Source: Ginglymostoma cirratum (taxonomy: Eukaryota). Taken from it: a stretch of 64,000 bases of DNA. The notes under the pieces were generated by a model. That model did not search any database, had not been told where the DNA came from, and worked only from the letters and a program-made list of their open reading frames with translations. Positions within the stretch are counted from its first letter, which is position 1. Each line of letters starts with the position of its first letter. The stretch lies in assembly GCA_024137785.1 (NCBI GenBank), contig JAHRHZ010000020.1, positions 53,646,551 to 53,710,550 of the forward strand, in the 5' to 3' direction. Shown here piece after piece: positions 1-63,074 of the stretch. Made by a program: the position numbers and the translations under genes.

Positions 1-66
1 TCCTGCTCCTCTGATGCTGCTTGGCCTGCTGTGTTCATCCAGCTCTACACCTTTTTATCTTGGATT
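1..66 (+). mobile_element. Penelope pLTR fragment (cut by window edge)
   Basis: gatgctgcttggcctgctgtgttcatccagctctacac, as in the other copies. Confidence 0.8.
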
Positions 67-816: not shown

Positions 817-3800
817 ACCTTATCTTGTTCCTTGATGGACAGTGGTTCCCCCCAAGCTATGGAACAGGGTGTCTTCCTTTAATGAAAAGATTTGGTTCCG
901 GTCCTCTGTGAATGTACAGCTAATTATTTAAAATTGCTAAGACAGTTAGGGGTTACGGGAAACAACTGAGACAAAAATGGAGACCAGTTGCTGACGAGTA
1001 ATGATTATTACTGAATAGCAGAGCAGGTGTTAAAACCAGCTGGCCTAACGCTGATCCCACTTAAAGGTCTTTATATGTATCGTTTGATTTCAGTATTTCA
1101 AAAGTCAGTAGTGGCTTCATCGATTACACTCTAACCTCAGAACCAGAAAGTGTCAGGTTTAGGTTCTACACAAAACAGTCAAGGCTGATACAGTTCAGTA
1201 CTAAAGGAATGCAGTACTGGTAGATGGCCATCTTTTGGAATGGGAGGTGAAGCTGAATCCCCATACGTGGATGCAGAAGCTTTTGGTGTTAAGAACAAGG
1301 GAATTATCCATTAATCAAATTAAAATAAAAACTCTTCATTGTCACATTATGGTTTAAAGAGTTTTCTACATTACAATAGTAATCACACTTCAGAGTTTCA
1401 CTTTTTCCGAAAGGTCTTTAAGAGTCCTTCGTGACCACTGGACATTTCCATAATAAAAAGGCAGGCTTATATTTATAATACACTGATTGAGCCCAGACAG
1501 GAGTTTAGAACATTCTTCACAGCCAAAATGATGTATTGTCAGGTGGCAAGGCTGATTTTGGACAAACTTAATATATGTAGCAACATTACCTCTTGCTGTG
1601 AGTAGAAATTCAATTACTTATTCAGTTAAAAAGGACTTCAAGACCCAATTTTGTGTTTTGTTTACGATTTATTGGCCAATGGCTTAAAATTACTTTCAGC
1701 ATCTCACAGAAATTCTTATATGCTTTGCTTTTTTTTAGAAAAGGAAAAAAAAAGGTGTAGATAGAGAGAGGTGAGATAATAAAACATAGTAAAGAATCAG
1801 TAGATGAGGTAGGAGCTGAATAGGGGGTTTAAATGTTTGAGTCAATATCTTTCAACAGCACTGGTTCACGCTTTCAGATATTCTACTTCGGTTTCCTTTT
1901 TGCTTTGCATTATCATCTGTTAGTGATCATACCTACAGAAACCTGTGGAAGCAATGCTAATGGAGAAATTTCAAAGAAACAAAAAGTATAAAAGATAGTT
2001 TAGCCAAGATTTTTTTTTAAAAAAAGAAAGGAGAGTTTTGGCAAATTATTATTTAAATAATAAAAAAGTTGTAAGTGATTTTACTTAGTTTTTTCGCAAT
2101 AAAATCTGGAAGGATTGATCTTCAATTTGCTTTTTCCCTGTCAAAGAGGATCTGCATAATTATTATAACTGAGTACTTTCCACGCTTGTTACCCTAGCTT
2201 TAGTCACCTGCTCCTATAGTAACATTTTTAAAAAAGTAGGCAGAAAAAGAGTGTGATGTAGCCCACTGCCTTTGAAGCACAGAACACAGCCACTTAAATA
2301 ATTACTACAGATATACAAGAAAAGTGACCTACAGTGTTTTTTTTGTCACATCAGTGCTTTAATATGAAAGATTTATGCAGATCTTGAAAAGAAAACAAAA
2401 ATAATGGTCAAGAGAGATGGAGAATATTCTCCTTCTCATGCCACGAAAGGTTGATACTCTGTTCAACCACTTTGATATTCCCATCTTGTGGGAACGTAGC
2501 TAAGCTTTGCTCCAAGTTGCATGCAGTATCCGTAGTTCTTATCTGCTTCGGCTGGTGTAAATTGGGCAAACAGTGAATGCCATGTATCTGAACTCTAGAG
2601 TAATCAAGTTGTAATTCTGGTTGTAATTCAAGTGGAAATTATCACTGGGGATAAAAAAAAATTCACACGGTGGGATCAAACAAGTCTATTACATGATCCA
2701 AGCTCAAAACTTGAGCAGGTCAAAGAATAAACCACCAAAATCAAAAAGTATAACCAACCCTTCAGGAAAACGCAACATCCGATGCGAGAAGAGGTCCGGC
2801 CAGAAAGGACTAGACTAGGAATGCTGAAACTCTGAAAAGGGCCAGGAGGCAGTTTTGCTTACAGTTCCTGAACCTACAATATTGTTTAACCTCACAGTAG
2901 CCGCTTGCATATTCATAGCTTTAATTGAGAGCAGAGGTGCTTCACTGAAGCAAAACAAAGTGACTGTGGCACGAGAAGATAGTGGATCAGATTACCGAAA
3001 GAAAAACAAAGGTATTCAGAGCCAGGATAAGCTCAGAAAAAAAAAAGTGCAATGAATATATTTTCTAGGCCCTTCAGCCTGGGGGGTCTAGAAAACTGCT
3101 GGCACAGGCAATGGTGGAGAAGTTATAATTGGGAATGCACACAAGGCCAAAATCAGAGCCTCGAGTCCGAGGGAGATGATTTTTCAAAGATCTCCTTCCT
3201 GTCTCTAAAGGCATCATTACTTTCACAAACTGTTGCTTCACCAGAACCCAATGTGGGCTGGTGAACTAATGGGTTATTAGTGAAAAGCGGTGGGGTTGTG
3301 GGGGAAAAAAAGAGAGAGAACGTGCTAGGAGTAAAAACTGAGCAGAGGGATTTTAGACAAGTTCCAATTTCCGGATGGCAGAATGCAGGGCACTAGCCAG
3401 GAGTGCAAAGTAGTCAAATCTAAATATTATGAAGAAAGCAGGATTTCAGCAGATGAGCAAAGTCAGATAACCTTACGGAGGAAACATGCAGTCTTCGTCG
3501 TGGTGCAAAATTAAGGCAGAAGCTCAGTCAATTCGGACACCAACTGCTGTGAACAAAGTGGCTTCCTCTCAGACTGTTGCCAGGGAATAATGGAAACTGG
3601 CTTCCGTTGTTCCCTAGCAACAGTCTGAGAGGAAGCCAGCATGGCTCCCATCTTCCCAGTATTTCTATTCTAGAATATTTATCCCTCCACACCATGGTAC
3701 AAATGAAATGTGTAGCACTCTAGGGGAAAGTCGCTGAAGACTTAGACCAGGATAACAAACCCACAGATCCAACACATTCAGTCTACAGCAGTAGTGAGGT

Positions 3801-17324: not shown

Positions 17325-17949
17325 CTGAAGAGATAAGCTAGCATTAAATCTCAAATTAGAACAAACTTGATGCACTCAAGATCAAGATACTAGCTTTTTT
17401 GTTAAAAACTCCCAATAAACTGGAGGTCTCCTCAAGCACATTTCACTTATTTAACAGTAACCTATAAGCCAGCTCACCGTTATCTGAAAGATGGGACAAT
17501 TTTAAAAATTCCCACACCCAAACAGAATCCTGCTGCCCTCCCACAAAAACAGGTCAACTTGTGCAAGTTACATACGTTGCATTTGAAACAATGCAGGGAA
17601 TTGTCTTTGAATTCTTGTATCCTGATCCTCAGCTGAATAAGATTACTCCAAAGCCCCATATGCTCTCACTATAAATGCAGCAGGAGTAAACTCCATTTGT
17701 TGAGGAAGGCATTATTAGAATCTGCTTTTCCACAAGGTATCATCAGAACAAGCTTACATGGAAGTGAGCCACACCTAGGAATCTACCTCAAAGAAAAAAG
17801 CAAACTGGCTTCAACTAAAAAGTTTATCCAATGAGAAATACCAATTTGCCCAAGACACCAATGTAATACAGGTCTTGAGTAGCTTCGAAGTCCATGGAGG
17901 AGAAAGAGTTTAATTCCTATTAAAGTTAAGGGGAAAAAGCCCAATTGTC

Positions 17950-22528: not shown

Positions 22529-23002
22529 AAGATCAATTTGCTATTCTGCATCCATTATCTTGTACTTAAGTCATTTTAATTTTACACTCAAATTAGGAGA
22601 GTAGAGAACTTGCTCATCTCAGTTCAGCACTACACTTTAGCAGGATATTGGATAAAATTACGGCTTCAACCATTTTGGCCAATTCTTCACTGTCTGCATG
22701 ATGGACACACACCTAATTTCTACTCATGACGATTAGCCTGACAAGTGTCTCTACCGCCTCCTTTTGGATTTGTTTGGGATGAGGATGCTTGTTGCACTAT
22801 TTATCATAAAACACGCCATTAACAACAGCCATAACCATTGGTTTGGTGAATTGGTCAAAATCAGTCAGCAACTGAGGTTCCTGTCATCTCAAGTCAGATA
22901 TCACAACCCATTTCTGCATGCAAACCCAAAACCAAAGTTGGGAACCAGTATCCATTCCTCCGTTGTTTAAAAACACGGGTAAATAAATTGGCCCAATATT
23001 GT

Positions 23003-23090
23003 ATCAGAGAGGGTTTAGGCCCAAAACGTCAAGTTTTCCTGCTCCTATGCTGCTTGACCTGCTGTGTTCATCCAGCCCCATGCTTGTTAT
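23003..23090 (+). mobile_element. Penelope pLTR fragment
   Basis: Near-identical to 55620-55705; imperfect flanking repeat CCCAA(T/A)ATTGT. Confidence 0.8.
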
Positions 23091-23679
23091 CCCAAAATTG
23101 TGTTGGTTTATCCCACTAATGAAATTTCTGCACACTTGTGAAACAATAGTGAGAAAAACCCAACAAGTCCACTCTAGTCAAACAGCAGGGTTTTAAAAAA
23201 GGCACAAAATTTAATCTCAGCAAGGTACTGAATTACAACAACCACCAACTCCCACGCCAATCACCAAGTGGCCATTCTAGGACAAACCCTCATTAGTGGA
23301 GACCTGTGTTAAATACTTCACAAAAATCTTTCCAATAATGAGTCTATTCCCACAAATATATCCTTCTGTCCTTTGTTCCCTCAAAATGTAACTGCTTTAT
23401 CCCCCACACACCCCCAATCTAATAGTCCTTTTAGTGATTTCCAAATTTTTCTCCACTCCTTGGGGCAATGAAGTTTATCCTCCATTCTCGATCAGATTTA
23501 TTAATACTCTTACACTTGTGGCCCCTAGTTCTGGTCTCCATGCTAGGGAAGTGAGGACATCAGTCAATTCTTTAGTGGTTTAAGTGAAAGATTGGTGTCA
23601 AGTTTTCAAGGCTGACTGGAGCGGTGCACAATGCAGTATGAGTGATGCCACTAAACATCAAGTGTTGTAAGTGATAAGC

Positions 23680-43961: not shown

Positions 43962-44361
43962 NNNNNNNNNNNNNNNNNNNNNNNNNNNNNNNNNNNNNNN
44001 NNNNNNNNNNNNNNNNNNNNNNNNNNNNNNNNNNNNNNNNNNNNNNNNNNNNNNNNNNNNNNNNNNNNNNNNNNNNNNNNNNNNNNNNNNNNNNNNNNNN
44101 NNNNNNNNNNNNNNNNNNNNNNNNNNNNNNNNNNNNNNNNNNNNNNNNNNNNNNNNNNNNNNNNNNNNNNNNNNNNNNNNNNNNNNNNNNNNNNNNNNNN
44201 NNNNNNNNNNNNNNNNNNNNNNNNNNNNNNNNNNNNNNNNNNNNNNNNNNNNNNNNNNNNNNNNNNNNNNNNNNNNNNNNNNNNNNNNNNNNNNNNNNNN
44301 NNNNNNNNNNNNNNNNNNNNNNNNNNNNNNNNNNNNNNNNNNNNNNNNNNNNNNNNNNNNN
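43962..44361. other. Assembly gap (400 N)
   Basis: Run of N; its right edge abuts a Penelope-derived repeat. Confidence 1.
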
Positions 44362-44445
44362 GATGCTGCTTGGCCTGCTGTGTTCATCCAGCCCCACACC
44401 TTGTTATCTTGGATTCTCCAGCATCTGCAGTGCCTTTTATCTCTG
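44362..44445 (+). mobile_element. Penelope pLTR fragment at gap edge
   Basis: Same consensus sequence as the other copies. Confidence 0.8.
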
Positions 44446-47472: not shown

Positions 47473-48326
47473 TTAAGATATTTCCCCCCACCACCAAGAT
47501 ATTTTCTAAAATTAGCCTGTTTAAGAGATATTAGATACTTCTGGGGCAGCAGGATTTGTACCCAGGCCTTGCGGCTCAGAATTTTCCACCTTAAAATGCT
47601 GTTATTGTTTCTTCATGGTTGCAGTCAAAACAAACAAACCACCTACTTTCAGTTTCTTCAAGGTATAGGCAAGTAAACATGCCCTGACAATGAAGCATCA
47701 TCTAACAAATTTTGAACCGGCTTAAAAAGATTAAGATGGCAACCAATGCTGATTGGAAAGGCCATTTTGGAAGCAAAGCATGAGGTTTTGAGGGGGGCTT
47801 CTACACCTCAAGGCTCAGCCACAAAGGCACTAGAACCTTGGGAAATCCTCAAGGCCAGAATTTGAAGGCTGGCAACAGGGGAAGGATAGAGATAGGGAGT
47901 GGTAGACCAGTGAGACCAAAACAATTTTAACAAGGGTAAGAATTTTTTACTTTCAGATATCACGAGTGAGGTGCTAATGTGCATCAGCAAGCACAATGCA
48001 ACTGCTGAGCAGAACTGATGAAAATCCTTCCCTTCCAATTCAAATAACTTCTGGAGTTCTCCACTCCTCCTTGACCCTATTCCACGTCACCTATATGCAG
48101 TGTCAGGACTTCAGCTATCACGTGACACCCAGATCTATTTTGCTGGAAACTCTCGAAGTCACTACTCCCAATGTCAAGGCTCACGAACAGAAATTTCCAC
48201 CAAGCCAAAGTCAATTTTATTTGGCCCTTTCCACAAACTCCAACTGGCCAACATCAGGCTTCACAACCTTGGCATCCTAAATCAGATCTGAACTCAACCC
48301 CATATTCCATTCTATTACAAAGGCCA

Positions 48327-48529
48327 GAGACAGTAGGAACTGCAGATGCTGGAAAATCTGAGATAACAAGGTCTCGAGCTGGATGAACACAGCAGGCCAA
48401 GCAGCATGGCTGACACTTCAGGCCTAGACCCTTCCATTTCTGTAAAAGGGTCTAGGCCTGAAACTTCAGCCTTCCTGCTCCTCTGACACTGCTTGGCCTG
48501 CTGTGTTCATCCAGCTCTACACCTTGTTA
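48327..48529. mobile_element. Non-autonomous Penelope-derived palindromic element with 16-bp TSD
   Basis: Long inverted repeat; flanked by TCTATTACAAAGGCCA at 48311-48326 and 48530-48545. Confidence 0.85.
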
Positions 48530-49397
48530 TCTATTACAAAGGCCATCTGCTTTCACCTCCAAATGTCAGCCCTCGTGCAATTGCCATAAAACTCTTGGTA
48601 CTTCTAGATTCCATTGGTCCAACATTCCCCTAGATACATCCACCTACATTTACATCTTTAAACGTAAAGTTAGACTCCACCATCCACATCTTATCAGCAG
48701 CACTCAATGCTGTACAAGAGAAGTTTCAAAAACGGTCATTCTCATGATATTCTCAGTCTCACTCTTGATTACAGACTTTACAATTCTTGGTTCGTTTGTC
48801 CCAGTGTTCATGCAACTGTCACATTTCGACAAATTAGGCTAGAGTGCAGCAGCTTTGGGAATATTTTACTCACCAGAATGCACTATACAAACCAAGTCTG
48901 TTCTGGACAGCAGAATTGCTGAGATGCCACAAGTTGAGAACAAAGGGTGAGAAAAGACTGATAGGCATTGTACAAGAAATAATCAGACTTTTCAGCTTAA
49001 AAACCCAAATCTGGTTTCATACTGCAAGATCACAGCCACCATTACCGTGAAGTGATCAGTTTGCTACTTGGAAGTCAGCAAGTGCCAAATAATTACAAGG
49101 TTTAAACACACCAAAGTGCAATGAGGACTACAAGCAGCAATTCAAGCCTCTGGAACTGTTTAAAATGGGAGGAGGGTAATTCAAAATAAAAAGCAAATGC
49201 ATGATGTTGAACATCATGTGACATGACAATAACTCTCCAATAGCACATGGATTAGTAAATTTAAACAAGCTTCATTCCAGTAACTACAACAATGCTGGTT
49301 TGTTCAGTTCAATTCAGCAGCAAATATCATGGAACTAAAGAATAATTGGTTTTGAAGTTTACCAGCTTTTAGTATTAACTAATTGAAACATACATAC

Positions 49398-49457
49398 CAA
49401 TTGATCTTGATTCAGTTCTTCACGTTTTAGGCGTTCCTTATAGTCATCCAGTTTTGC
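49398..49457 (-). CDS. CAPRIN2: CAPRIN2 coding exon 2 (AKLDDYKERLKREELNQDQL)
   Basis: Acceptor ttctttttaaaag, donor TTG|GTATGT; caprin KLxDYKxRL...LNxDQL motif; 60 nt. Confidence 0.93.
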
Positions 49458-49569
49458 CTTTTAAAAAGAAAGACCATCACAAGGTCACGCATTGCAAATA
49501 ATAGTGATTTGCCCTTAAAAGGGAATAATCAACTGTTTTTCCACATGGTAAAGAAAACGTACTCCGTTA

Positions 49570-50230
49570 TAGAGTCAAAGTCATACAGGACGGAAACAGA
49601 TGCTTCAGTCAAACCGGTCCACACCAACCTGTTCCAAAGTTAGTCGCACTTGCCTGCATTTGGTCCATAACCCTCCAAACCTTCCTAATCCCAAATGAGT
49701 TTTACGGGTTGTAACTGCACCTGCAGCCACCACTTCCTTTGGCAATCCATTCCACACTAACCACTCTGACAAAGTTACCCTCACCTCTTCACCAACCTCC
49801 CACCACCACCGCCGCCCTCCCCCCAAAGTCCTTTCTAAATCTCTCCCCTCACCTTAAAAAAATGCCCCCACGTTTTGAACTTCCCCCAACCTAGGGAAAA
49901 GATCCTAGCTATTCACTTTAACTCTGCCCCTTATGATTTAAGGCCAACCTCAACAATGTCATCATTCAACCTTCTACACTTCCGTCAAGGAGTCCCAGCC
50001 TCCTCATAACTCAAACCCTCCCTTCCCAGCAACATCCTGGTAAACCTTCTAAACCATCTCCAATTTAATAATATTCTTCCTACAGCAGAACGACTAGAAC
50101 CACACAGTACTCCAGAAGAGGTCTCACCAGCATCCTGCACAGCTTCGACATGACCTCTTGACTCCTATATTCGAAGGAGTGAGCAATGAAGACAAGCATG
50201 TTAAACGCCTTCTTAACCACCTTGTCCGTG
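49570..50230 (-). mobile_element. CR1 (HER1-like) LINE 3' fragment
   Basis: Typical CR1 3' tail (atagagtc..tacag.acggaaacag) and adjacent ORF2 remnants on the minus strand. Confidence 0.75.
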
Positions 50231-50649
50231 ACGCAAAAAGATCATAAGTCATCTTCAGTTTCACAACGCAACCTCAATGTCAAATGAGGTCACTTGCCTT
50301 CCATTAAAGAGGTCAAAGTGTGAAGTGCACAAGCTGTGCCTTAAACAAGTAATATTACAAGCTTTGCCATTACCCTCTTGGGGTAATATCTTGCTTCATG
50401 CATTTGCTTAAAAAAAAGCAAATAAGCATCAAGTTTCGAGGGCACTAAGTTGCACTACCAGTGTCAAAAAATGCAAGTCACATTTAACTAAAGAAAATGA
50501 GTTACTAACAAAACTATTTTTACATCTCAGTAAAGATATCAATGCAAAGTTTCAGGTTCGCTTAAGCCATTGGGAGGTTAAAAGCTTAATGCGTACGAAA
50601 TTCATATTGAAAATTTAAAGCCAAAGCAAAGGCCAAGTTTCCCTCAGTT

Positions 50650-52350
50650 GAATGCACAATCTGCAACCGCATCTTGGCTGTTTACGATACGATTTCACGC
50701 TGTTAAAAAGGTAATTGGGGCGACGAATGCAATTAAGGGCTTCCCTGTCTAACTGCAACACTGATCGCTCTTCATTAACGCAAGGCGTATGTGTCTCCAA
50801 TAATATTTGTCAAAACGACTCAGCATTTGCCTCGTCGCTATTCTACGAAACGAAAAAGAAACCCGAACGTTTCAGCATTCCCGGTTGAGGTGAAAATCGA
50901 GCTGCGCAATCTGGGCGCTGTCCCTTTAAACAAACGTAGGACAGTATCACGAAGGTACTCATCCCGTTAAAAGCTGCACGAACCGAAACAGATTTAAAAA
51001 GGTGTTGCAAGGTCAAAAAAAAATGAATGCAAACTTTAAAAGTTGGATGGAGGGGTAGGGGAGGCGGGATGAGTGCAGGGGAGGAACACATAGGCACAGA
51101 TGATGGTGTAACTCAATGCAATGCAGTTAGACTGCAGCAAGGGCTGTGCACTGCAGAAATATTCAGGGAGCATCTCATAGATTCAGCGCCAGAGGGTTAG
51201 TGAGAGGACAGGAGAGGGTGAGGGGGTGGCGAGGGTGCAGTGCGGAGTGCTTTCCCGTTTACCTTCCTTTTCTCAATATTCCGGATCTTATGCTTGAGGC
51301 AGATCATGCCATTCTCCAGGTACGTCTCGTACGCCTGATACTGGCTGTTGGCGGCGGCCAGAGCCTGGATGAAGGGGGCCGGCCCCTGGCTCGAGGCCCC
51401 ACCGCCTCCAGCAGCAGCACCGCCACCGCCGCTGGAAGGCGACCTCTTATCGGCTTTCATCTTCATCTCGCTGCTACTGCAGTAACTGCTGCTCTGGATT
51501 CCGGAGTGAGGACACCGAGCCTCACCATAAGAGAAAGAGGGAGGGAGGGAGGGTGGGTGGATGGATGGATGGCAGGCAGGCAAGCAAATCAGTGCACGAG
51601 GGGGAGGGCGTGCTTGGTGGCGGCTATCCGGCTACCGCTGCCTGCCCTCTGCTGCATCCTCCGCCGCTTCTGGCCCGCGCTCCCGCTCGCGCCGCCGCTT
51701 TTATGTCACCGAATCCTAGCGGGTGTTTTTTTTTCCCCCTCCCCCCCCCTCACCCGGCCAGCACCACGTTCCATTGCGTCCCGCGACGTTCCAATCACAC
51801 GGCGCGCGCTTCCCCTCCCACACCTCCCTGGGACATCCCTTCCCGTTGCAGCGGCACACAACTGGCACCGAAACGTTGACCACTGAAAATTAAATAAAAA
51901 ATGAAAGGAACGTTTTGGATCTTATGAAACGTCTCGGTGCCACCTATTGCAAAATATAACATATGCATACACACGCGCGCGCGTTCTCCTCTTCTCTCTT
52001 CACCCCCCCCCCCCCCCAAACAATGCTATACACCTTGTTTTATTCCAGTCCCATCCCTCCGAAACATAACGGGCATGGAAACATTCGCAACGTGCACTTC
52101 CAGTCGCCGGGGGACGCAAACCCACCGGCCCGTTGCATTGCACAAAACATTGATGCGATATTAGGAGTTCGTGTTCACGCATTGGCTTTGCACTGTTGTA
52201 CGGGCATTGCGTCCCGCCGCCGTCGGGTTTCGATGTGTTTACTGTCGTAGGCATCAGCGTTAACCACGAAAGATGGATCTACAAGTGCAAGGAGCGTAAT
52301 CGCTAAATAAATAAAAGGAGTAATATCGGGCAGTCTGCTGTTTGTCCCGT
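50650..52350. promoter_or_regulatory. CpG island / CAPRIN2 promoter
   Basis: Sharp CpG enrichment around exon 1 in an otherwise CpG-depleted window; CCAAT at 51791-51795 and GC-rich tracts. Confidence 0.8.
51263..51466 (-). CDS. CAPRIN2: CAPRIN2 coding exon 1 (MKMKADK...KHKIRNIEKRK)
   Basis: First in-frame ATG at 51466 (the ORF-track start at 51583 is TTG); donor AAG|GTAAAC; 204 nt, phase 0. Confidence 0.88.
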
Positions 52351-53139
52351 TTCTTGCAGCGAAACAGAAAGTGCTGGAAAAATTCAGCAGGTCTGACAGC
52401 ATCTGTAGAGGGGAAAACATTTAACATTTCGAGTCTATTGCCCCATCGACTTGCGTGTTGATTATGAAGGGGATGAGGAAGATCATGGTATAAATCCAGA
52501 GGCTATAGCAGTGCAAGAGCTGCAAAATAGTTGCCGTTATTTAAAGGGACAGGTTTAAATGCAAAGAGGTGTTTCCATTTGTAAACAATCATCATGTGAT
52601 GACAGCAATTGTATCAAAATAGGCCCTTGCGTCATTCTCTGACACGTGATACGGTTGGGGCCGAAATTTGTCAATAATCGGTAGAATATTAAATAACAGT
52701 GAGCATTCAAAATAAGATTTTATTGCACCAAGGGGCTGAACAATCCTATCATCTTTATCAAGTAATGTAAAGGACAGTAAAGTGAGGACCTGTTGATGAA
52801 AAGAAATATATTTTGGAATATTATACTTAAAAATTCTTCCTCTGATTTTCTAAAGCCGCCGATCCAAAGAGCCACAAAGTTCCCCCTATCGTTTTTCCCC
52901 CCAAAAAGTGTTCCACAACTGACTGAAAGATACTTAAGTTGTATCCTCTGCACTTCCAACTCCCTCTCTCAAGTCAAATCCATTGATAAAATGAACATGT
53001 TACAGTTGTCAGGACAAATGATTCCTCTTGTTTTCTTCCCAAACGCAATGCTCCTGCCCTTCATCCGTAGAACGCAAGAGCATAATAGACTGGCACAACA
53101 TCATTCAACAACAAGGCCCGTGAATTGAGGATCCCAACT

Positions 53140-54372
53140 GGCCAGCGTCTGATTGTCAATACTAAGGAGCACGTATCATTTCAAAAAGGTATGGCAGAAA
53201 GTAAGAGACGGTGAGACAGCTCTTCTAATAGTGAAGTACTGTTGTGAGAAATTACTTTGAAATAGGTCAGTAAATCGCAAAATAATGGGAGCTTGTAAGA
53301 AAGGTAGTGGAATAATCATGGGCAGTTTTAATATTTATACAGATTGGACAAATCAAAAATAGCCTTGAGGATGACTTCATGCAACGTATTTAGCAGCTAA
53401 AGTAAAGCATTTGTCCCTTAGGGGGATGGGACTGGTGAAGTAATAATTGGAAATAAATAGAGAAAGATTTTGAACATATATTTCGTCCTGATCCGATGGC
53501 ACCATTCCAGCTACAGTATCAAATCAAAAGGATAAAGGAAACGTGGGACTTAAAACTATAATGATTGTTTTAGAAAAACAAAATCTAGGCAAACTAATGA
53601 GATTATAGACTGACAAGTACCTTGAACCTGAGACCCTGCTTCCTAGAATTTTATAAGAGACTGTAGAAATAGTGAACATTTTGGCAGTAACCTCCCAAAG
53701 TTCCCTAGATTCTGAAAAGGTTTTAGTGGATTGGAAAACCATATGTGTTTAAAACAAACAGAGACAGAAAGTAGAAAACTATAGGTCAGGTGGCCTAACA
53801 TTTGTTATTGGGAAATTACAAGAATTTACTGTTAAATAAGTGATAGCAGCACATTTTAAAAAATGTAATGCATTTTGTTCTTGAACGGGTAAGATTCACC
53901 AAATTAATTTGAGCACTTTGAGAATGCAAAAAGCAAGATCATGTGGTCTGATATGTAGTATATTTGGACCGTAATGCTTCTCTTACTATTGTAGACTGTC
54001 CCAGATGAGTGGGGATCCAGAGACACTTTTTCAGACGATAATTTTTAAATTGTGTTCCCAGCCCCACCAATTATTAGAAGTTTGGCCCAAAGAATCTGCG
54101 TAGTGATATCGATAGTTTAAGTGAGTGACTAAACATTCAGCAGATAGAGCATAATGTGAGAAAAAATGAGATTATCCGTTTCACCAGAATGAACAGGAAA
54201 TCAAAATATTATTAAATATTTGAGAAGTTGTGTCAAAAGAGATTGCAGAAGGTCGCAGTACAGAAGGATCTGTGTGTGTTTTATATCACAAAGTAGTAGC
54301 ATACAGGTACAGCAAGTAATCAGAAGGCCAAAGGATTGTTGGCTTTTACTGCAAAAGGGATGGAGTATAAAG
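53140..54372 (+). mobile_element. Decayed CR1 LINE fragment
   Basis: Remnants such as ENYRSGGLT and QVIRRP..LLAFTAKGMEYK typical of CR1 ORF2; boundaries approximate. Confidence 0.65.
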
Positions 54373-55705
54373 GTGGGGAGCGGAAGTGGGAGCTATCCAT
54401 TGTCCATTTCAAGCCCACTGACTCCCACAGCTACCTGGAATACACCTCCTCCCACCCACCCTCCTGCAAAAATGCCATCCCCTGTTCCCAATTCCTCCGC
54501 CTCCGCCGCATCTGCTCCCAGGATGAGACATTCCACTCCCGTACATCTCAGATGTCCTCATTCTTCAAGGACTGCAACATCCCCCCCACAGTGGTCGAGA
54601 ACGCCCTCGACCGTGTCTCCCACATTTCCCGGAACACATCCCTCACGCCCTGTCCCCGCAATAATAACCAAAAAAGAATACTCCTCGTCCTCACGTACCA
54701 CCCCACCAACCTCCGGATCCAACGCATCATCCTCCGACACTTCCGCCATCTGCAATCAGACCCCACCACCAAAGACATTTTTCCCTCCCCACCCTTATCT
54801 GCCTTCCGGAGGGACCACTCCCTCCGTGACTCCCTTGTCCGCTCCACACTCCCCTCCAGCCCCACCACACCCGGCACTTTTCCCTGTAACCGCAGGAAGT
54901 GCTACACCTGCCCCCACACCTCCTCCCTCACCCCAATCCCAGGCCCCAAGAAGACTTTCCACATCAAGCAGATGTTCACCTGCACATCTGCCAATGTGGT
55001 ATACTGCATCCGCTGTACCCGTTGTGGCTTCCTCTACATCGGGGAAACCAAGCGGAGGCTTGGGGACCGCTTTGCAGAACACCTACGCTCGGTTCGCAAC
55101 AAACAACTGCACCTCCCAGTCGCGAACCATTTCAACTCCCCCTCCCATTCCTCGGATGACATGTCCATCCTGGGCCTCCTGCAACGCCACAGTGATGCCA
55201 CCCGAAGGCTGCAGGAACAGCAAATCATATTCAGCCTGGGAACCCTGCAGCCCAATGGCATCAATGTGGATTTCACAAGCTTCAAAATCTCCCCTCCCCC
55301 AACTGCATCCCAAAACCAGCCCAGCTCGTCTCCACCTCCCTGACCTGTTTTTCCTCTCACCTATCCCCTCCTCCCACCTCAAGCCGCACCCCCATCTCCT
55401 ATCTACTAACATCATCCCGCCCCCTTGACCTGTCCGTCCTCCCTGGACTGACCTATCTCCTCCCTACCCCCCCACTTACACTCACCTTTACTGGCTCCAT
55501 CCCCGCCTCTTCGACCTGTCTGCCTCCTCTCCACCTATCCTCTCCTCTATCCATCCTCTATCCGCCTCCCCATCTCTCCCTATTTATTTCAGAACCCTCC
55601 TCCCCTCCCCCATTTCTGATGAAGGGTTTCGGCCCGAAACGTCAAGTTTTCCTGCTCCAATGATGCTGCTTGACCTGCTGTGTTCATCCAGCCCCATGCT
55701 TGTTA
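54373..55705 (+). mobile_element. Penelope-like retroelement, 5'-truncated (RT thumb + GIY-YIG endonuclease + 3' pLTR)
   Basis: ORF to 55343 with KPTDSHSYL, HPxxCKxAIP, CxRxKCxTC and VVYCIRCTRCGFLYIGETKRRLGDRFAEH (GIY-YIG with Cys motifs), then a pyrimidine-rich 3' region and hammerhead motif. Confidence 0.92.
55616..55643 (+). ncRNA. Minimal hammerhead ribozyme core in Penelope pLTR
   Basis: CTGATGA-A-GGGT-TTCG-GCCC-GAAA-CGTC: both catalytic boxes, stem II and a GUC cleavage triplet. Confidence 0.8.
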
Positions 55706-56089
55706 ACCCACAAGTTTCACTGTTTTAAACAAAGAGAAGCTGAAATTCAGAGAAGCTGAAATCTAATGACTACAGTCTATCTAAAATAGTTACATTAAGG
55801 ATATTAAAAGTACAAAGGACACTGTTACTTAGACTCAAACCTGAAATTCCTAGTTCATAGTTTCTACTACATCCATTTGACGTATACCCCGAAAACTCAA
55901 GAGCCAAGCTTGGAAGGTTAACTACTTGGTCTGAGCACTACTTCAAGGTTCATACAAGGATTGAGATTCCGTGGGCCTTCGGTTTTATTCTGGCAAGGTT
56001 TTCCCAAGAAATCCCTTCGAACCATCCCACGGCTGTAGAATGGCTGATTAACACAGGCCTTGCTTTAGCTTAAGCATCTATCTAGAAAT

Positions 56090-57145
56090 ATGGAAAAATG
56101 TCCTGTGCAAAAAAGCAAGACAAATCAAATACGGCTGATTAACAACCTCTCAGCAAAGTGATGGAAAGTGTCATCACATGCATAGGAAATAACCTGCTCC
56201 CTGATGGTCAGTCTCAGTTCTCCCAGTGCCACTCAGCACCTAGCCTCATTACAGCCTTTGTTCAAACATGGACAAAAAGCTTAATTCCAGAAGTGAAGTG
56301 AGAGTGACAGCCCTTGACATCAAAGCTGCAATTGACCAAGTGTGGCATCAAGGAGCCCTATCAAAACTGGAATCAATGGGAATCGGGGGTAAACTGTCCA
56401 CTAGCAAGAGAGTAACATGATACAAAGGAAGATGGTTTTGGAGGTCAGTTATCCCCGGCTCCAGGACGCCTCTGCAGGAGTTCCTCAGGACTGTGTCTGC
56501 CAACCAACCATCTTCAGTTGCTTCATTAAGATCTTCCCTCCATCATAAGTGGGGAAGTTCACTGATGATTGCACAATGTTCAACACCATTTGTGACATCT
56601 TCTGTTTCCCCAAAGCCAGTCCATCATCTGTAAGACACAAGTCAGGAGTGTGATGGAATACTCCCCACTTGACTGGATGCTTGCAGCTCCAACAACACTG
56701 AAGATACTCGACACCATCCAGGACAAAGCAGCCCACTTGACTGGCGACCACCCAACTACACTTTCAACCTTCGGTCCCTTCATAACTGGCACACAGTAAC
56801 AACAGTGTCTACCATCTACGAGGTGCACCTCAGTAACTCACCGAGGATCCTCTGACAGCACCTTCCAAAACTGCAATCTCTACCCCTGGATGGACAAGGA
56901 CAACAGGTATATGGAACCACCAGCACTTGCAAATTCCCTTCCAAGGCACACATCTTCCTGACTTGGAACTACATTGTCGTTCCCTCACTGTCGCAGGTCA
57001 AAATTCTGAAACTCCCTTCCTAATAGTTTCCCTCACCCCAAGGACCTCAACAGTTCAAGAAAGCTGCTCACCACCACCTTCTCCAGGGCAGTTAGAGATG
57101 GCAATAAATGTTGGTCTAGCCAGCAATGCCCATATCCCATGACAA
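56090..57145 (+). mobile_element. Decayed CR1/L2-group LINE 3' part
   Basis: RT motifs VTALDIKAAIDQVWHQG and GVPQ; 3' tail shared with the SINEs above. Confidence 0.8.
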
Positions 57146-57472
57146 ATAGAGAAGAAAAGCTTTGATTCTAATGTTATTTCACTCCAAAGTTGTGTACCTA
57201 GAACTCTCGCTCATGTTCTAAAACTCCAAAGTCTTGTGTCCAGAACTCTCTCTTCTCGGCTTAACTGTTTCAGAAGTCCAACTCCACGAAAGCAATATTT
57301 CATGAATTAAGCTTTGTCCTGAATTAAAACTCCACTCTTTGAAGACAGAGCCACACTTACGATTAAGTTCTGATTGATAGTTTTCCTTTCAATGTTTGTA
57401 TCTTCCAGGGTGGTTGGTCATGGCCAGTTACTGGAAGCAAATGATTGTTTACAAGGAATCATTTTAAGAGAA

Positions 57473-57641
57473 GATAATAGGAACTGCAGATGCTGGAGAA
57501 TCCAAGATAACAAGGTGTAGAGCTGGATGAATACAGCAGCACAAATGCATTTCTGATGAAGGGTCTTGGCCCGAAACGTCAGCCTTCCTGCTCCTATGAC
57601 GCTGCTTGGCCTGCTGTGTTCATCCAGCTCCACACCTTGTT
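57473..57641. mobile_element. Non-autonomous Penelope-derived inverted-pLTR element with 15-bp TSD
   Basis: Inverted arms; flanked by ATCATTTTAAGAGAA at 57458-57472 and 57642-57656. Confidence 0.85.
57553..57580 (+). ncRNA. Minimal hammerhead ribozyme core in non-autonomous element
   Basis: CTGATGA-A-GGGT-CTTG-GCCC-GAAA-CGTC. Confidence 0.75.
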
Positions 57642-58439
57642 ATCATTTTAAGAGAAACCTGGTTCTGGAAGTATTTTTCCTCAAAAGCACATGGGCTTTT
57701 GGGCACAAGCACATCACAGAATTCCTACATATTTTCTAATCTACCTGTTCAGGAATATTGTGACACATCTCTGGAGCAAGTGGTACTTAAACCCTGGCTC
57801 AGAGGTAGGGACAATAATTCTGCACCACAAGAACCCCCACACTATTCCTACACTTAGTGCAAATTGGGTGACAAAAGCTTTAGAAGAGTTAAATTTGGCC
57901 TTGTTAGAATTGGCAACAAGTGTCTTTGAGAGTCCAAGGAATTGGCTTTTCAGACTGCGTTGATGAATCTCCCTGGAGTTATGGGACCAGTCGGAGCAGA
58001 CAAACTGAGTATGTCGGCCCTGGACATGCTTAAGTTACAATGCTGTCGGTAACAAAGTGGTTGTGATAACCAGTGCCCTCCAGCTATGCCCCACATGGCA
58101 TCAATAGTCTGGATGAGCATCTAGTTTGTGTGGGAGTCATTGGTTCCTTCAATGGGGGAGTGTAATCGAGGCTGAGATTTTCCATGTTGAATTTGAAGCG
58201 TGGCAGCGAGGATTTTAAATAGCGCATGTCCATCAATGCCTGAGGGTTATCATGTGCTTCTCAGCTTATTATCTAGACAAGGGAGATGGTGCACCAGTTA
58301 GTTGGTGAATCTCAAATGGCAAGCAAGACAGAGGTTTTTGCCACGAACAGGCCCTTCTGGGTCCTAAGGTTCTGGAACTATATTTAAAGGCCACCTGGAC
58401 ACCTCATCACTGTCTATGAGCCAGGAACTCCCTTGAAGC

Positions 58440-58650
58440 TGGGAAATGCTTTCTGAAGGGTCGTTGATGCTGCTGTACGAGGTCACTGTGGGAAGGTCCA
58501 TCCCATTCCCAGGGGATGGCATCAGACACCATCCTATTGGACAATTCTGGCTGGAAGCACTGTGTGTCAATATCAGCGGTCCATACAACAGGGATGGCAA
58601 AACAGTGCTGGAAGAAAATGAATGACCTCATGCCCTTCACAAGGGTAAGT
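58440..58650 (+). mobile_element. Decayed Myb/SANT-like exon, probably of a PIF/Harbinger transposon
   Basis: FSEGSLMLL.EV...FPGDG then (frameshift) W...SAV....AKQCWKKMNDL followed by GTAAGT. Confidence 0.55.
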
Positions 58651-59699
58651 GACACCATCTTCTCTCCAACACCTCACACTCACTGGGACATCACTCAGCC
58701 TCACTCTTGTACCTTACAGGCGTCTCAAGTGGTCATAGGCTGCAAGCTGCAGCCTCGCATCGAAGATGCGTGAGCGCAAGGGATCACACCCACCTCATGC
58801 TCTCAAGCTACTAGCCCTTCCTGCCCACTGTGCTTTCTACTCACAGGGCACCCCTCACCACCTTTCAAGGTTCTGTGCACTCATAAACTGCTCCTGCATC
58901 CGTTCCAATCGCACTCACTCCTCTTTATCTCATTGCAGAAGCAGATACACAACTTTGCAGAGAGGGCCAAGTTCAGTGAGGTGAGACATATAAATGTCCT
59001 CAGCTCTTTTGAGGAAAGGGCCATCAAGCTGGCTGGGGAAGACTTTGGTGACAGTGAGACACAAGTGGGCCACTAACCCAATAAGCAACGTAGGGCTCCA
59101 CTCATCTCAGATGAGCAGTAAGGCCAACACACTGGTCTACATCGGTTATTCCGGGCCTTCACCAATCAATTCTTTCTATTCTCCTCTGCAGGCACTGATG
59201 TCACCCAGCACCAGTCTCAGGCTAAGAGGCTGCAACCAGAGCCCATCCTGTGCCAGCAACAGCTCAGACGGTGAAAAGTGTTCACCCAATCACCCACCAA
59301 TGTTGAGACCTTGGTGGGTCCTTTAACCAAAATAATCTGGTGAGCACAGCACTGTCTGCAGCCTCCAGAGGAAGAAACATAACCAGGCACCTGCTTGGTG
59401 AGAAGAAGGGACTCCTGGACTGAGGTTGAGGTGCCGAAGCTGAGCATCTATGGCCGAAGTAATGGAGTGCAGGTCTGAGCACATATCCACAGCCACTGAG
59501 TGCTCTTGCTGGACCTGGGTCTCAAAGGTGGCTCCCACTTGTTCCATGAAGACAAGCAGGGGCTTGCATGCCAGACTCATCGTCATGGTGAGGATATGGG
59601 TGGTTTCCTCATTTCGAGTTTTGTTCTTGCCTCCCGAGACCCTCTGGCACATGTACCTGATGTTCGCACGCCGCCCTATCAAGGTTGACTATGTAACTT

Positions 59700-59872
59700 A
59701 TGTACTGTTACAACATTTAAAAGATATTTAGCTAAATACATGAATAAGAAATATTTGGATGGTTAAAGGCCAAGCATAGGCTGGTGGGAATTGTTTAGTT
59801 TGGGACTATAGTCGGTATGGACTGGTTGGACTGAACGGCCTGTTTCCATGCTGTATGACTACGACTCTATGG
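59700..59872 (+). mobile_element. CR1 LINE 3' end
   Basis: ggcctgtttccatgctgtatgact..gactctatg tail. Confidence 0.7.
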
Positions 59873-60789
59873 TTGAGTGCAGAGGCACATATTCTGCACA
59901 GGGCCTGCTTCTTAGGAGCAATGGTAGAATCGTCCATGTATCTACATGCTTCAGCAGTGAGTAGTCTATTCCATGTCAGAGGTTCTACACACTACGACAC
60001 TTACGACTGCGAGGTGGGCAATGGTTAAATCGTGTCAATTTACTGCGAGTGTGGAAACAAATGGACAGGGCACATCCACACTTCGTAGTCCATAACAGCG
60101 GAAGCCATGCCAGTGAAGATGCTCAGGCAATTCAAGGGTAGAGTGAAGGCTTGTTTTGTTCCACAGCACTGTAGGGATGATGACGAGGACCACTTTCAAG
60201 ATGTGAGACAGCTCAGTAACATTAACATTTCTGTTCCAAGGCAGCCAAAGCTATGTTCTCACCCAGAGGAGTGAAGTCGACAGGCACACCTTTGATTTTT
60301 GCAGTAAAGCTTATGAAATGTTGAGTATCTTGATTGGGCAGAAGTTAATTGGGAAGTTAATCCTGGCTAGGTGGGTCATAAATGCATGTTTTTGGAATTC
60401 TGATGATAAGAAAGGAGGGACAACTTAATTGCTAAACTTTCCTAGATGACAAGATTCTGACTTTTGGAGGTTTGCTCAATTAACTCATGACACTCACCAT
60501 TATTCTTGCACCTCAGCAACCAGAAAGGCGTCCAGTCTAAACCATTCTGATTATGTTGGAACCCCTATCCACGATAACTGCCTCCGGAATAAGTTGGGGA
60601 AGCTGGGATTTTCAGCATTGGGAGTCTTTATCCCTGGGCATCGCTGGCAACATTTGAAGCAGTTGAAGGCCCCAATTCCTTACAGGACCAAGTAGGGACT
60701 CGTGATTATAACTCAAGTCTATCCTGATCCTTTCCTATCTCAACTGAATCTGTTATGCCCAGGTCCTGGAAGTGAGGCTTCAGTCCCTG

Positions 60790-61175
60790 CTAACCTTTTG
60801 AGTGCGGCAGCCTCAAACACCATTACATTACTGAGGGTGTTCTGCACAGTCGGTTGTACTGTTTTATAGCTCTGTGACTTAAGGCTAGAAGTCTGATGCT
60901 ATCTCAGGTGATCGCAAAAGATCCCACCGTATTACTTTGAAGCACAGCTAAGGGAATTCTTCCAGGTGCCTGACACAATATACGTTCCTCAACCAATGTC
61001 AATGGAACAGATTATAGGGTCATTTATCCAATTGCTGCCTGTGGGATCTGACTGTGCACAAATTGGCTGCTGTTTTTCTGATCTTACAACAGTGACTACA
61101 CTTTGAAAGTATTCCAGTGGCTGCAAAGTACATTGGTAAGCCCTGGTTGTTGCCATATAAATTCAAGCATTCTTT
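60790..61175 (+). mobile_element. Deu-domain SINE (SacSINE/AmnSINE-like)
   Basis: attgctg..tgtgggatct..ctgtgcacaaattggctgc core; further decayed copies at ~61810-62020, 40540-40895 and 1100-1440. Confidence 0.65.
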
Positions 61176-61590
61176 TCTTTCATCTTGCTGTGCTGTTTCA
61201 TCGGACTGCTGCTGGAATAGAATCAGGCCGTGCTAAGAGTAGCAGGCCAAATCCAGGAACTCTCCAAACAGTATTTTCTGCACACTTTTCCTCATCAGGA
61301 TGTTGCAACTGGGACTTGAACGCCCTGATGAAATATCTTTAGTGTCAGTTACTTAATGGAAGACGGTATTTTTTTGGGCACTGAGATCTCTGGCAGTACG
61401 TGCAGTGATCCCCTGGAGTGTGTCCTTCTTGAGGATGTCCCTGTCATACTGACAGGAGTTACCACGTTGAGAAGACCCAAGCAGTTGCCATGCCAAGTGC
61501 ATTGTGACCACAGGATGGTGCTATATTACCCTTTAAAGGCAGTTCTGTCACTGAAACCAGAGATAAAGAAATATCGGTGTAAAGAAATGT

Positions 61591-61730
61591 TCTTCAGAAA
61601 AATGAAGAAGGGTCTAGGCCCGAAACGTCAGCCTTCCTGCCCCTCTGATGCTGCTTGGCCTGCTGTGTTCATCCAGCTCTACGCCTTGTTATCTCAGATT
61701 CTCCAGCATCTGCGGTTCCTGCTATCTCGG
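61591..61730 (+). mobile_element. Non-autonomous Penelope-derived element with 10-bp TSD
   Basis: Same pLTR sequence; flanked by AAAGAAATGT at 61581-61590 and 61731-61740. Confidence 0.82.
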
Positions 61731-63074
61731 AAAGAAATGTCACCTATTTACTGATTAATGAGCATTCTCAAGAACTTACTTTTCAGGGTGCAGCACATTC
61801 ATTCATTCGTCCATAAAAGATCCAATAGCACTCTTCCAAAGAAGAGTGGGTGGAGATTACCCTGATTTCCTGACCAAAATTTACCCTTCACGCACTATAA
61901 GAAATTATCTGGTCATTATCCAACTACTGCTTGTGGATGTTTGCAACATTTAAATTGTCTGCTGTGTTTCCTACAATCTGTGCTTTAAAAGTCCTCAATT
62001 TGTTGTAAAGTGCTGGTAGAATGTTTTGAGATTTGAGCAGAAATTCCCAGATTTTCCCATACCTTTGACAGGAGAAATTCTTCCCGACATTACCATTGAC
62101 TCTGATTTAAAATTTATGTCCCCTTTTCCTGTATTTTCCCATTAGAGGAAACAGATTTCTTTCCATCCACCTAATCAAATCCTTTAATCATCTAAATAAC
62201 TCAATTAGATTAACCTTTAATCTTTTATAGCAAATACAAATTGTAGGCAATGCAATCTGTGCTCAGCATTTAATCCTTTTAGTCTTGGTACAATTCTGAA
62301 AAGGATACCTTTAGCAGGACCTCAATTTCAATTATAATTCAATTTCAATTTCACGTTATTGTTCACACAGAAATTCATTTTGGTTACATGGCTCATTCAT
62401 TAGGAAAACATACATGTAAATGAACAATAACAGTAATACGGAAAAGAAATATCCTTTTGCAGAGGTCTACCTTTAATTAAAATGGACATTAAAGGCTGTT
62501 CAAATAAATTAAGATTATCCATCAGTGCAGAGTGCATATCAAAGTCAATACATCGACTCCTGTTAAAGGTTCTTACAGAAAATGGAAAAATGCGTCGAGG
62601 AACAAATCTGAGCGATTGCAACCTAATCTCTGAGTGCAACCAGCAGTGATACTGAGATAAGGGATGATTCTCTTTGTTCATGAGACTCTTCACTTCCATC
62701 AAAGTTCTTTGTGGCATAATTTCTTGAGAATGATTTGCTCATCAAATACCCTTCCTCCTTTGTTCAATAAGCTCTGTACCCTTAAGGAGTCTGCTTTCCT
62801 AAAACCACATTATCAGGCATCCAAAAGGGATAACACTCTCAACTAAAGACTGATAAAATTATTTCATAATGGTTGGATTAGTCAAAAGGATTTTCATTTT
62901 CTGTGGCAGTGTAATTGTGTCTATCCCCGGCCACCAAATCTGTACTCCAATTTGATTTATCATCAACTTTGATATTTATATTGTGATTAACTACTTCAAT
63001 GTCCACAGCATGAATGCTCCCAAGAAAAAAAACGTCATTAGCTAGCTTCTTCCTGAAGTCCATAACCAGTTCTT

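Follow-up and report, generated by a model that had tools for sequence, protein, structure and literature searches.

The window considered here, a stretch of 64,000 nucleotides from Ginglymostoma cirratum, contains one coding piece of a Penelope-like element (PLE), a retroelement encoding a reverse transcriptase (RT) and a GIY-YIG endonuclease, together with several short insertions built from the 3' end of such an element. This end is referred to below as the pseudo-long terminal repeat (pLTR), and a "unit" is a pLTR-only insertion bounded by a target-site duplication (TSD). We consider it probable that the units are the shortest products of the normal PLE insertion process, made by the RT/GIY-YIG protein on the coding element's own RNA. 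They probably arise as by-products of that element, and not as a ribozyme-bearing passenger in their own right, and once inserted the stubs would likely be dead ends. In kind, the feature is a known one, as it matches the published pattern of PLE insertion with an inverted copy, a tail and a TSD. All positions are those of the window, and within the pLTR nucleotides are numbered from hammerhead C3 as +1. The features are as follows, the TSDs being given without strand.

54403-55705, plus strand: 5'-truncated PLE (the open reading frame [ORF] copy) with RT thumb, linker, GIY-YIG domain, stop codon, 3' untranslated region (UTR), hammerhead and short 3' end; the CX4CxxC linker lies at 54885-54911, the GIY-YIG domain at about 54996-55229 and the stop at 55343, and the 3' UTR is pyrimidine-rich.
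48311-48326: left TSD of unit 1, 16 bp, an exact repeat of 48530-48545.
48327-48434, minus strand: inverted arm of unit 1, pLTR from helix II on, with an internal deletion of about 16 nt and a 35-nt tail (long 3' end), lacking CUGANGA.
48435-48529, plus strand: direct arm of unit 1, starting 5 nt upstream of the hammerhead core, with a mutated core (A6, G8) and the short 3' end.
48530-48545: right TSD of unit 1, an exact repeat of the left one.
57458-57472: left TSD of unit 2, 15 bp; single-copy contigs of relatives lose their match at its last base.
57473-57547, minus strand: inverted arm of unit 2, made up of the tailed arm 57473-57539 and an 8-nt junction.
57548-57641, plus strand: direct arm of unit 2, starting 5 nt upstream of the core, with an intact core at 57553-57580 and the short 3' end.
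57642-57656: right TSD of unit 2, an exact repeat of the left one.
61581-61590: left TSD of unit 3, 10 bp, an exact repeat.
61591-61730, plus strand: unit 3, with a 14-nt inverted hammerhead 5' region (61591-61604), a direct arm (61603-61728), a tail and 2 extra nt.
61731-61740: right TSD of unit 3, an exact repeat.
23003-23090, plus strand: fourth unit, 88 bp, with a 6-nt fold-back at its 5' end, the short 3' end and no intact core.
44362-44445, plus strand: pLTR piece with tail (long end), its 5' side concealed by an N run at 43962-44361.
1-66, plus strand: pLTR piece, its 5' side cut by the window edge, ending about 7 nt into the tail.

An earlier reading of the same letters, the first-pass annotation, had placed three insertions at 48327-48529, 57473-57641 and 61591-61730, flanked by exact direct repeats of 16, 15 and 10 bp. 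These coordinates proved exact, and we keep the three insertions as units 1 to 3 (the named units). They measure 203, 169 and 140 bp, so that of the proposed size range of 140-200 bp the lower bound holds and the upper does not, the actual range being 140-203 bp. The proposal that they consist only of the Penelope 3' end is borne out by self-BLAST and alignment: every arm corresponds to the 3' end of the ORF copy, with 67-77 of 80-82 letters identical to 55623-55705, and the units hold nothing but pLTR and tail. The pieces at 1-66, 23003-23090 and 44362-44445, described as related, belong to the same repeat, and the 23-kb piece has a TSD of its own, an 11-bp repeat with one mismatch (22992-23002 and 23091-23101).

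These repeats were compared with those found when the same spans were placed at random. Within a slack of +/-3 nt the longest exact repeat was 9 bp, seen in 1 of 2000 placements, and 11 bp with one mismatch was reached by 4 of 2000. With +/-15 nt, 10 bp occurred in 2 of 1500 placements and 13-16 bp in 3 of 1500, the latter three having probably landed on the real units. Given the chance rate of 10 bp at wide slack, the TSD of unit 3 is persuasive mainly through its position at the homology boundary. The right TSDs of units 1 and 2 open with 3 nt (48530-48532 and 57642-57644) that are identical to those which follow the short 3' end in the element, a possible primer-template microhomology which leaves the TSD lengths uncertain by 3 nt.

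The arms share two main 3' ends, a short one at +92 and a long one at +127, the difference being the 35-nt tail; the piece at 1-66 ends between the two. Units 1 and 2 are arranged head-to-head, with a direct arm running from -5 to +92 and the tail on the inverted arm, and in both of these fully inverted units the tail is found on one arm only. The inverted arm starts at +5 and carries an internal deletion in unit 1, while in unit 2 it starts at about +60 and is extended by a 5-nt fold-back, the last 5 nt of the 8-nt junction folding back onto the start of the direct arm. Unit 3 is a single tailed arm with a 14-nt fold-back to -7 and no real palindrome, and the fourth unit is a single untailed arm with a 6-nt fold-back to -1. 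The partly inverted or palindromic structure claimed for the family thus stands for units 1 and 2 and falls for unit 3, which has merely its 14-nt 5' fold-back. The centres are all different in the four TSD-bounded units. In contrast to these centres and to the ORF copy, which extends to -1213, the 5' ends of all four are clustered between -7 and -1, that is, 1-7 nt upstream of the hammerhead core. Four of the five measurable insertions in the window stop just upstream of the hammerhead and sizes form no smooth continuum; the continuous size distribution that would make the units mere extreme 5' truncations of full copies is therefore not what the window holds, though the pattern does not demand a separate small RNA.

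At least three sequence variants occur among the seven insertions of the window. One subfamily joins the ORF copy and the 23-kb unit, which are identical at 77 of 80 letters. The other comprises the three named units, whose direct arms are 77/83 identical to each other and 67-72/82 to the ORF copy, and which include two tail variants. On sequence grounds the ORF copy is thus of another subfamily than the named units and hence not their direct driver. Separately, an open frame at 61602-61727 runs from the hammerhead core through pLTR and tail and lies within five short gene predictions (81-174 aa) of another genome; no RT protein was among its protein matches. The five predictions are probably false gene models, and the frame may be the start of the ORF, as in other PLEs.

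A descriptor scan of both strands of the window returned convincing minimal hammerheads only at 55616-55643, in the ORF copy, and at 57553-57580, in unit 2; one further match, at 17746, is weak and chance-like. The core of unit 2 is of minimal type I, with a helix II of 5 bp, a palindromic helix III and a helix I of 2 bp, and that of the ORF copy is intact and minimal with a helix I of 4 bp. An intact core is thereby present in one of the three named units, or one of four with the 23-kb unit included: A6 and G8 are changed in unit 1, C3 is absent from unit 3 and the core as a whole is absent from the 23-kb unit. The label "hammerhead-bearing" is accordingly right for unit 2, the other named units carrying remnants. 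An Rfam search of the window at E<=1 yielded only two weak unrelated matches and no hammerhead, the latter as expected for motifs with a minimal helix III, and folding of five hammerhead regions gave no significant z-score (0.19 to -1.91). In the predicted minimum-energy fold of both intact hammerheads (55616-55643 and 57553-57582) the CUGAUG core pairs with the helix III/cleavage region, and such a modelled inactive hairpin would fit a protein-assisted ribozyme.

The ORF copy is the sole ORF-bearing PLE piece in the window. Its GIY-YIG domain matches PF01541 (E 9.6e-07), and 137 longer homologues of its protein mostly carry RT domains (PF00078), the RT core being absent from the copy itself; the retroelement protein also has a homologue in Chiloscyllium punctatum, 69% identical over 46% of the query. 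The copy lacks a 5' pLTR, and no TSD was found around 54403-55705. At its 5' junction, about 25 nt of unassigned sequence (54377-54402) adjoin a fragment which we take to belong to a long interspersed element (LINE)-like family. The CX4CxxC linker at 54885-54911, ahead of the GIY-YIG domain, points to the Neptune or Nematis clade, this type of PLE being defined by a CX2-5CxxC linker (PMC8557442). A polypyrimidine tract followed by CAG at 55592, 24 nt upstream of the hammerhead core, resembles a splice acceptor; in Penelope of D. virilis, an intron ends at helix I (PMC4209133).

Related organisms were represented by contigs of sequencing runs that share at best 24% of sampled words with the window and do not come from the source organism. 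Four of 24 runs (X1, X10, X14 and X24) were aligned on 54200-61900 at 80% likeness. X1 and X10 are one organism, X1, X10 and X14 are genome-sized, and X24 is a presumed RNA run, uninformative on expression, strand or circles. The flanks diverge by some 4% for organism A and some 8% for organism B. The contig mean depths given below are not copy numbers; loose ends refer to the 24 listed of 13,153 rows and joints to the 15 listed of 5464, other repeats included. Two further high-copy repeats, at 56256-57142 and 59597-59860, share these loose-end and joint rows.

At the site of unit 2, an X1 contig (record 4, depth 11.7) and an X14 contig (record 22, depth 10.3) stop at 57472 with 136 and 855 unmatched letters beyond it. 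At 57706 the sole depths are again 11.7 (X1) and 10.3 (X14), and the distance-to-end of 51 in X1 places the restart near 57656. Read from these piece ends and equal depths, the site appears to be empty in both relatives, an outcome which the first-pass annotation had named as worth looking for. At the ORF copy, the single-copy contigs of X1 and X14 stop at 55704, and 759 and 746 of their letters find no place on the PLE end; the copy seems to be absent from both, and its insertion may have replaced target DNA, the relatives having there, to the left of 55704, some 750 nt of different sequence. For unit 3 there are contig ends alone, at 61578 with 29 nt left (X1 record 8) and at 61457 (X14 record 24).

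The pLTR ends themselves recur widely in the relatives. Behind 61728 lie the loose ends of 550 (X1), 1616 (X14) and 27 (X24) contigs, behind 57644 those of 340 (X10) and 2089 (X14), and the flanks are mixed at both 3' ends (agreement 0.38-0.44). Eleven of the 15 joints listed are head-to-head. In two of the eleven, at 57531, a mismatch in the reference pools many contigs; the other nine have distinct inverted-arm starts, from +21 to +102, and none of these nine breakpoints falls at the hammerhead cleavage site (+28). A joint from 55618 to 61609, present in X1, X10 and X14 with a short side of 22-42 letters, leads from the PLE 3' UTR into the variant of the named units, which means that this variant also terminates longer copies. 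Summed contig depth reaches millions in the ORF bins 54457-55484, against 10-60 on most unique flanks, a contrast which gives no copy number; the rescaled depth of the pLTR is about 4-5x that of the endonuclease region and was not used as evidence on size distribution. An exact 21-nt pLTR motif had 0 matches each in metagenome, viral and prokaryote contigs.

The insertion of a unit by the coding element's machinery is proposed on the model of the Poseidon protein of Anolis (PAc), which cuts and extends both strands in vitro (PMC11167929). The endonuclease would nick the two strands at staggered positions 10-16 bp apart. One or both nicked 3' ends would then prime cDNA at two internal start sites of the kind described for PAc, here +92 and/or +127. 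Synthesis would end at a favoured position slightly upstream of the hammerhead, or sooner, and two cDNAs, or a short fold-back, would be joined, with a new centre built at each insertion. The stop, 1-7 nt upstream of the core, is likely the 5' end of the RNA, and its site presumably fits the initiator consensus. It is most simply taken as the 5' end of the coding RNA because priming 100-130 nt from it yields a cDNA of pLTR only, unless the enzyme jumps templates or the transcript is a tandem; alternatively, the RT may stall at the C-rich UTR. Insertion probably does not depend on hammerhead cleavage, judging from PAc, for which hammerhead mutants insert normally (PMC11167929). The first 172 nt of the ORF are also required in the PAc RNA (PMC11167929), so that part of the required RNA would be missing from a stub that ends at the start sites.

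Several observations weigh against this account. A dedicated short RNA would be equally expected to produce the clustering of 5' ends between -7 and -1. In a rotifer, pLTRs alone sufficed to mobilise a gene in trans (PMC3846280), non-autonomous PLEs such as MRC1 exist (PMC8557442), and the in vitro evidence was obtained with Poseidon, a member of a different clade. Among the relatives, single contigs with an inversion joint exceed 100x single-copy depth (57530 to 57602 in X14, 1735; 57593 to 61620 in X10, 1359) and could mark amplified subfamilies with fixed centres, the second of these joints being absent from X1, which is the same organism as X10. The 5' fold-back of unit 3 may recur in one X14 contig (57531 to 61590).

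Some of these observations also feed the foremost competing explanation, which we regard as unlikely: a self-propagating non-autonomous family comparable to a short interspersed element (SINE), in which pLTR-plus-tail stubs give a small RNA from an internal promoter, which PLE protein re-inserts in trans, the inversion arising on insertion. The 5' boundary, constant within 7 nt in four of four units, would agree with it, as would the 925 X14 contigs which part ways before 61603, their consensus having ATTTC at its end and mixed sequence after it (contigs linked to the UTR being excluded by construction) and the few joints at high depth. PLE promoter and start site lie inside the pLTR (PMC2377424, PMC8557442), and pLTR trans-mobilisation (PMC3846280) and MRC1 provide precedents. 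Against it, there are several sequence variants, each common to longer copies, and no short spacer or private sequence that sets the units apart from the coding element; in addition, its RNA would lack what PAc needs in cis beyond the RT start sites (PMC11167929). In the most far-reaching form of this explanation, which has the same low probability, the stub would start at a fixed position shortly upstream of the hammerhead and be primed at both internal sites from the two nicked strands.

Less probable still is an origin by deletion, whereby a full insertion (inverted pLTR, pLTR, ORF, pLTR) lost its ORF through recombination between the direct pLTRs, in the manner of a solo-LTR. PLE insertions typically have that starting structure (PMC3846280), and such a loss would produce structures exactly like units 1 and 2, their TSDs intact. 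The direct repeats, however, measure merely about 100-130 bp, the window's ORF copy is without a 5' pLTR, and unit 2 is apparently younger than the split from the approximately 96%-identical organism (34 of 931 and 46 of 1141 flank letters differ), which leaves little time.

The idea with which the first-pass annotation began, that of retrozyme-like passengers, did not hold up. Non-LTR retrozymes proper would be the progeny of tandem hammerhead arrays that replicate via a self-cleaved circular RNA, and we judge this origin very improbable, even though those of animals are pLTR-derived, leave monomeric offspring and are present in the single cartilaginous fish sampled (bioRxiv 10.64898/2026.07.22.740005), and even though one unit does have an intact core. 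No tandem of the pLTR unit exists in the window, where the closest pair on the same strand lies 1937 bp apart and consists of separate insertions; no tail-to-hammerhead joint is among the 15 listed; two of the three named-unit cores are broken; every centre is different, and the arrangement follows the published PLE pattern. Arms on opposite strands, moreover, are unable to make a dimeric hammerhead within one RNA.

A miniature inverted-repeat transposable element (MITE) or other cut-and-paste DNA transposon, which short, non-coding, TSD-flanked units with long hairpin folds (-120.6 and -74.7 kcal/mol for units 1 and 2) might bring to mind, is rejected as the least credible of all, since TSD lengths vary (10, 11, 15 and 16 bp) rather than being fixed, the outermost 20 nt of the units are not inverted repeats (4-7/20 matching) and the sequence is that of the 3' end of a GIY-YIG-encoding retroelement, and to this extent the earlier preference for PLE target-primed reverse transcription is upheld.

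The insertions lie in and beside a minus-strand caprin-2 gene, of which a C1q exon at 7.8-8.3 kb (E 7e-83) and an N-terminal exon near 51.3 kb (E 6e-11) were recognized. Unit 1 is located between these exons, and units 2 and 3 upstream of the N-terminal one. Downstream of the C1q exon, at 3559-3638, lies an 80-bp near-perfect hairpin (87.5% self-complementary) which is unrelated to the PLE and for which Rfam offers just a weak match to a miRNA, far under the threshold.

As read here, the units are ordinary PLE debris, and for the purposes of annotation such hairpins are to be filed as Penelope ends and not as MITEs or retrozymes. Their mechanistic value, for the way in which PLEs form inverted ends and tails, is modest; the relatives offer hundreds to thousands of contigs with these ends. 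The distributions of tail-bearing arms and of arm starts would bear on two-strand internal priming and on a possible identity of the 5' boundary with the start of transcription. If, on the other hand, a short RNA primed from both strands does propagate itself, it would be a new type of non-autonomous PLE partner, SINE-like and distinct from tandem retrozymes; each palindrome would then record two-strand priming by a dimeric RT-endonuclease, which would amount to a genome-wide record of PLE insertion.

The comparison with known systems places the units close to published PLE structures. A literature search found, by its listings, no paper describing a family of pLTR stubs in sharks, and a search combining Penelope with twin priming returned three unrelated listings. 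No confirmation came to light of a palindromic pLTR-only human repeat: PMC5753468 lists UCON13 as Penelope with no passage on a palindrome, and a literature search by name yielded no paper.

Non-LTR retrozymes resemble the units in being non-coding and pLTR-derived, with type I hammerheads, long TSDs and a presumed PLE drive. What defines them, however, is a head-to-tail tandem arrangement in which every unit has its own hammerhead (PMC7229834; bioRxiv 10.64898/2026.07.22.740005), and they yield circular RNA, whereas the units described here are single or head-to-head with mostly broken cores. A nearer parallel is found in the minimal hammerheads of PMC4209133, which are mostly single or on opposite strands and are probably truncated PLEs, the single motif being without cleavage. 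As in that survey, single motifs, remnant pairs close by on opposite strands and a palindromic helix III are seen here, and the 2-bp helix I of unit 2 has its counterpart in the D. virilis variant; sharks are not named in the results of that paper that were available.

With PAc, the units share two 3' ends that delimit the tail and a hammerhead some 90-130 nt upstream of them. The PAc RT starts at two internal sites, 111-118 nt in, and its tail is the stretch between them (PMC11167929). The clade differs, and start sites, cleavage and cis-requirements, like the cleavage-independent insertion proposed here, are carried over from PAc by analogy. In protein architecture, the C-terminal GIY-YIG domain after a CX4CxxC linker agrees with Neptune/Nematis-type PLEs, the element being known here without its RT core.

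The closest match is with the complex insertions of endonuclease-positive PLEs. A typical one consists of direct pLTRs and an adjacent inverted pLTR, with a 31-bp tail on one of them, and such insertions show TSDs of 8-10 bp, junction palindromes and solo pLTRs (PMC3846280). The same picture is drawn in Fig. 2 of PMC8557442, which also names non-autonomous Chlamys elements such as MRC1, and inverted pLTRs and 3' extensions are counted among the peculiarities of PLEs (PMC8969392); the transcription start has been located in the pLTR (PMC2377424). The units share with these insertions the pLTR of an RT/GIY-YIG element with its minimal hammerhead, the head-to-head inverted copy, a tail on one arm only (35 nt here, 30-40 bp there), a variable TSD and a small junction palindrome. 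They differ in being pLTR ends only, of 88-203 bp with no ORF between, and in 5' ends that cluster just upstream of the hammerhead.

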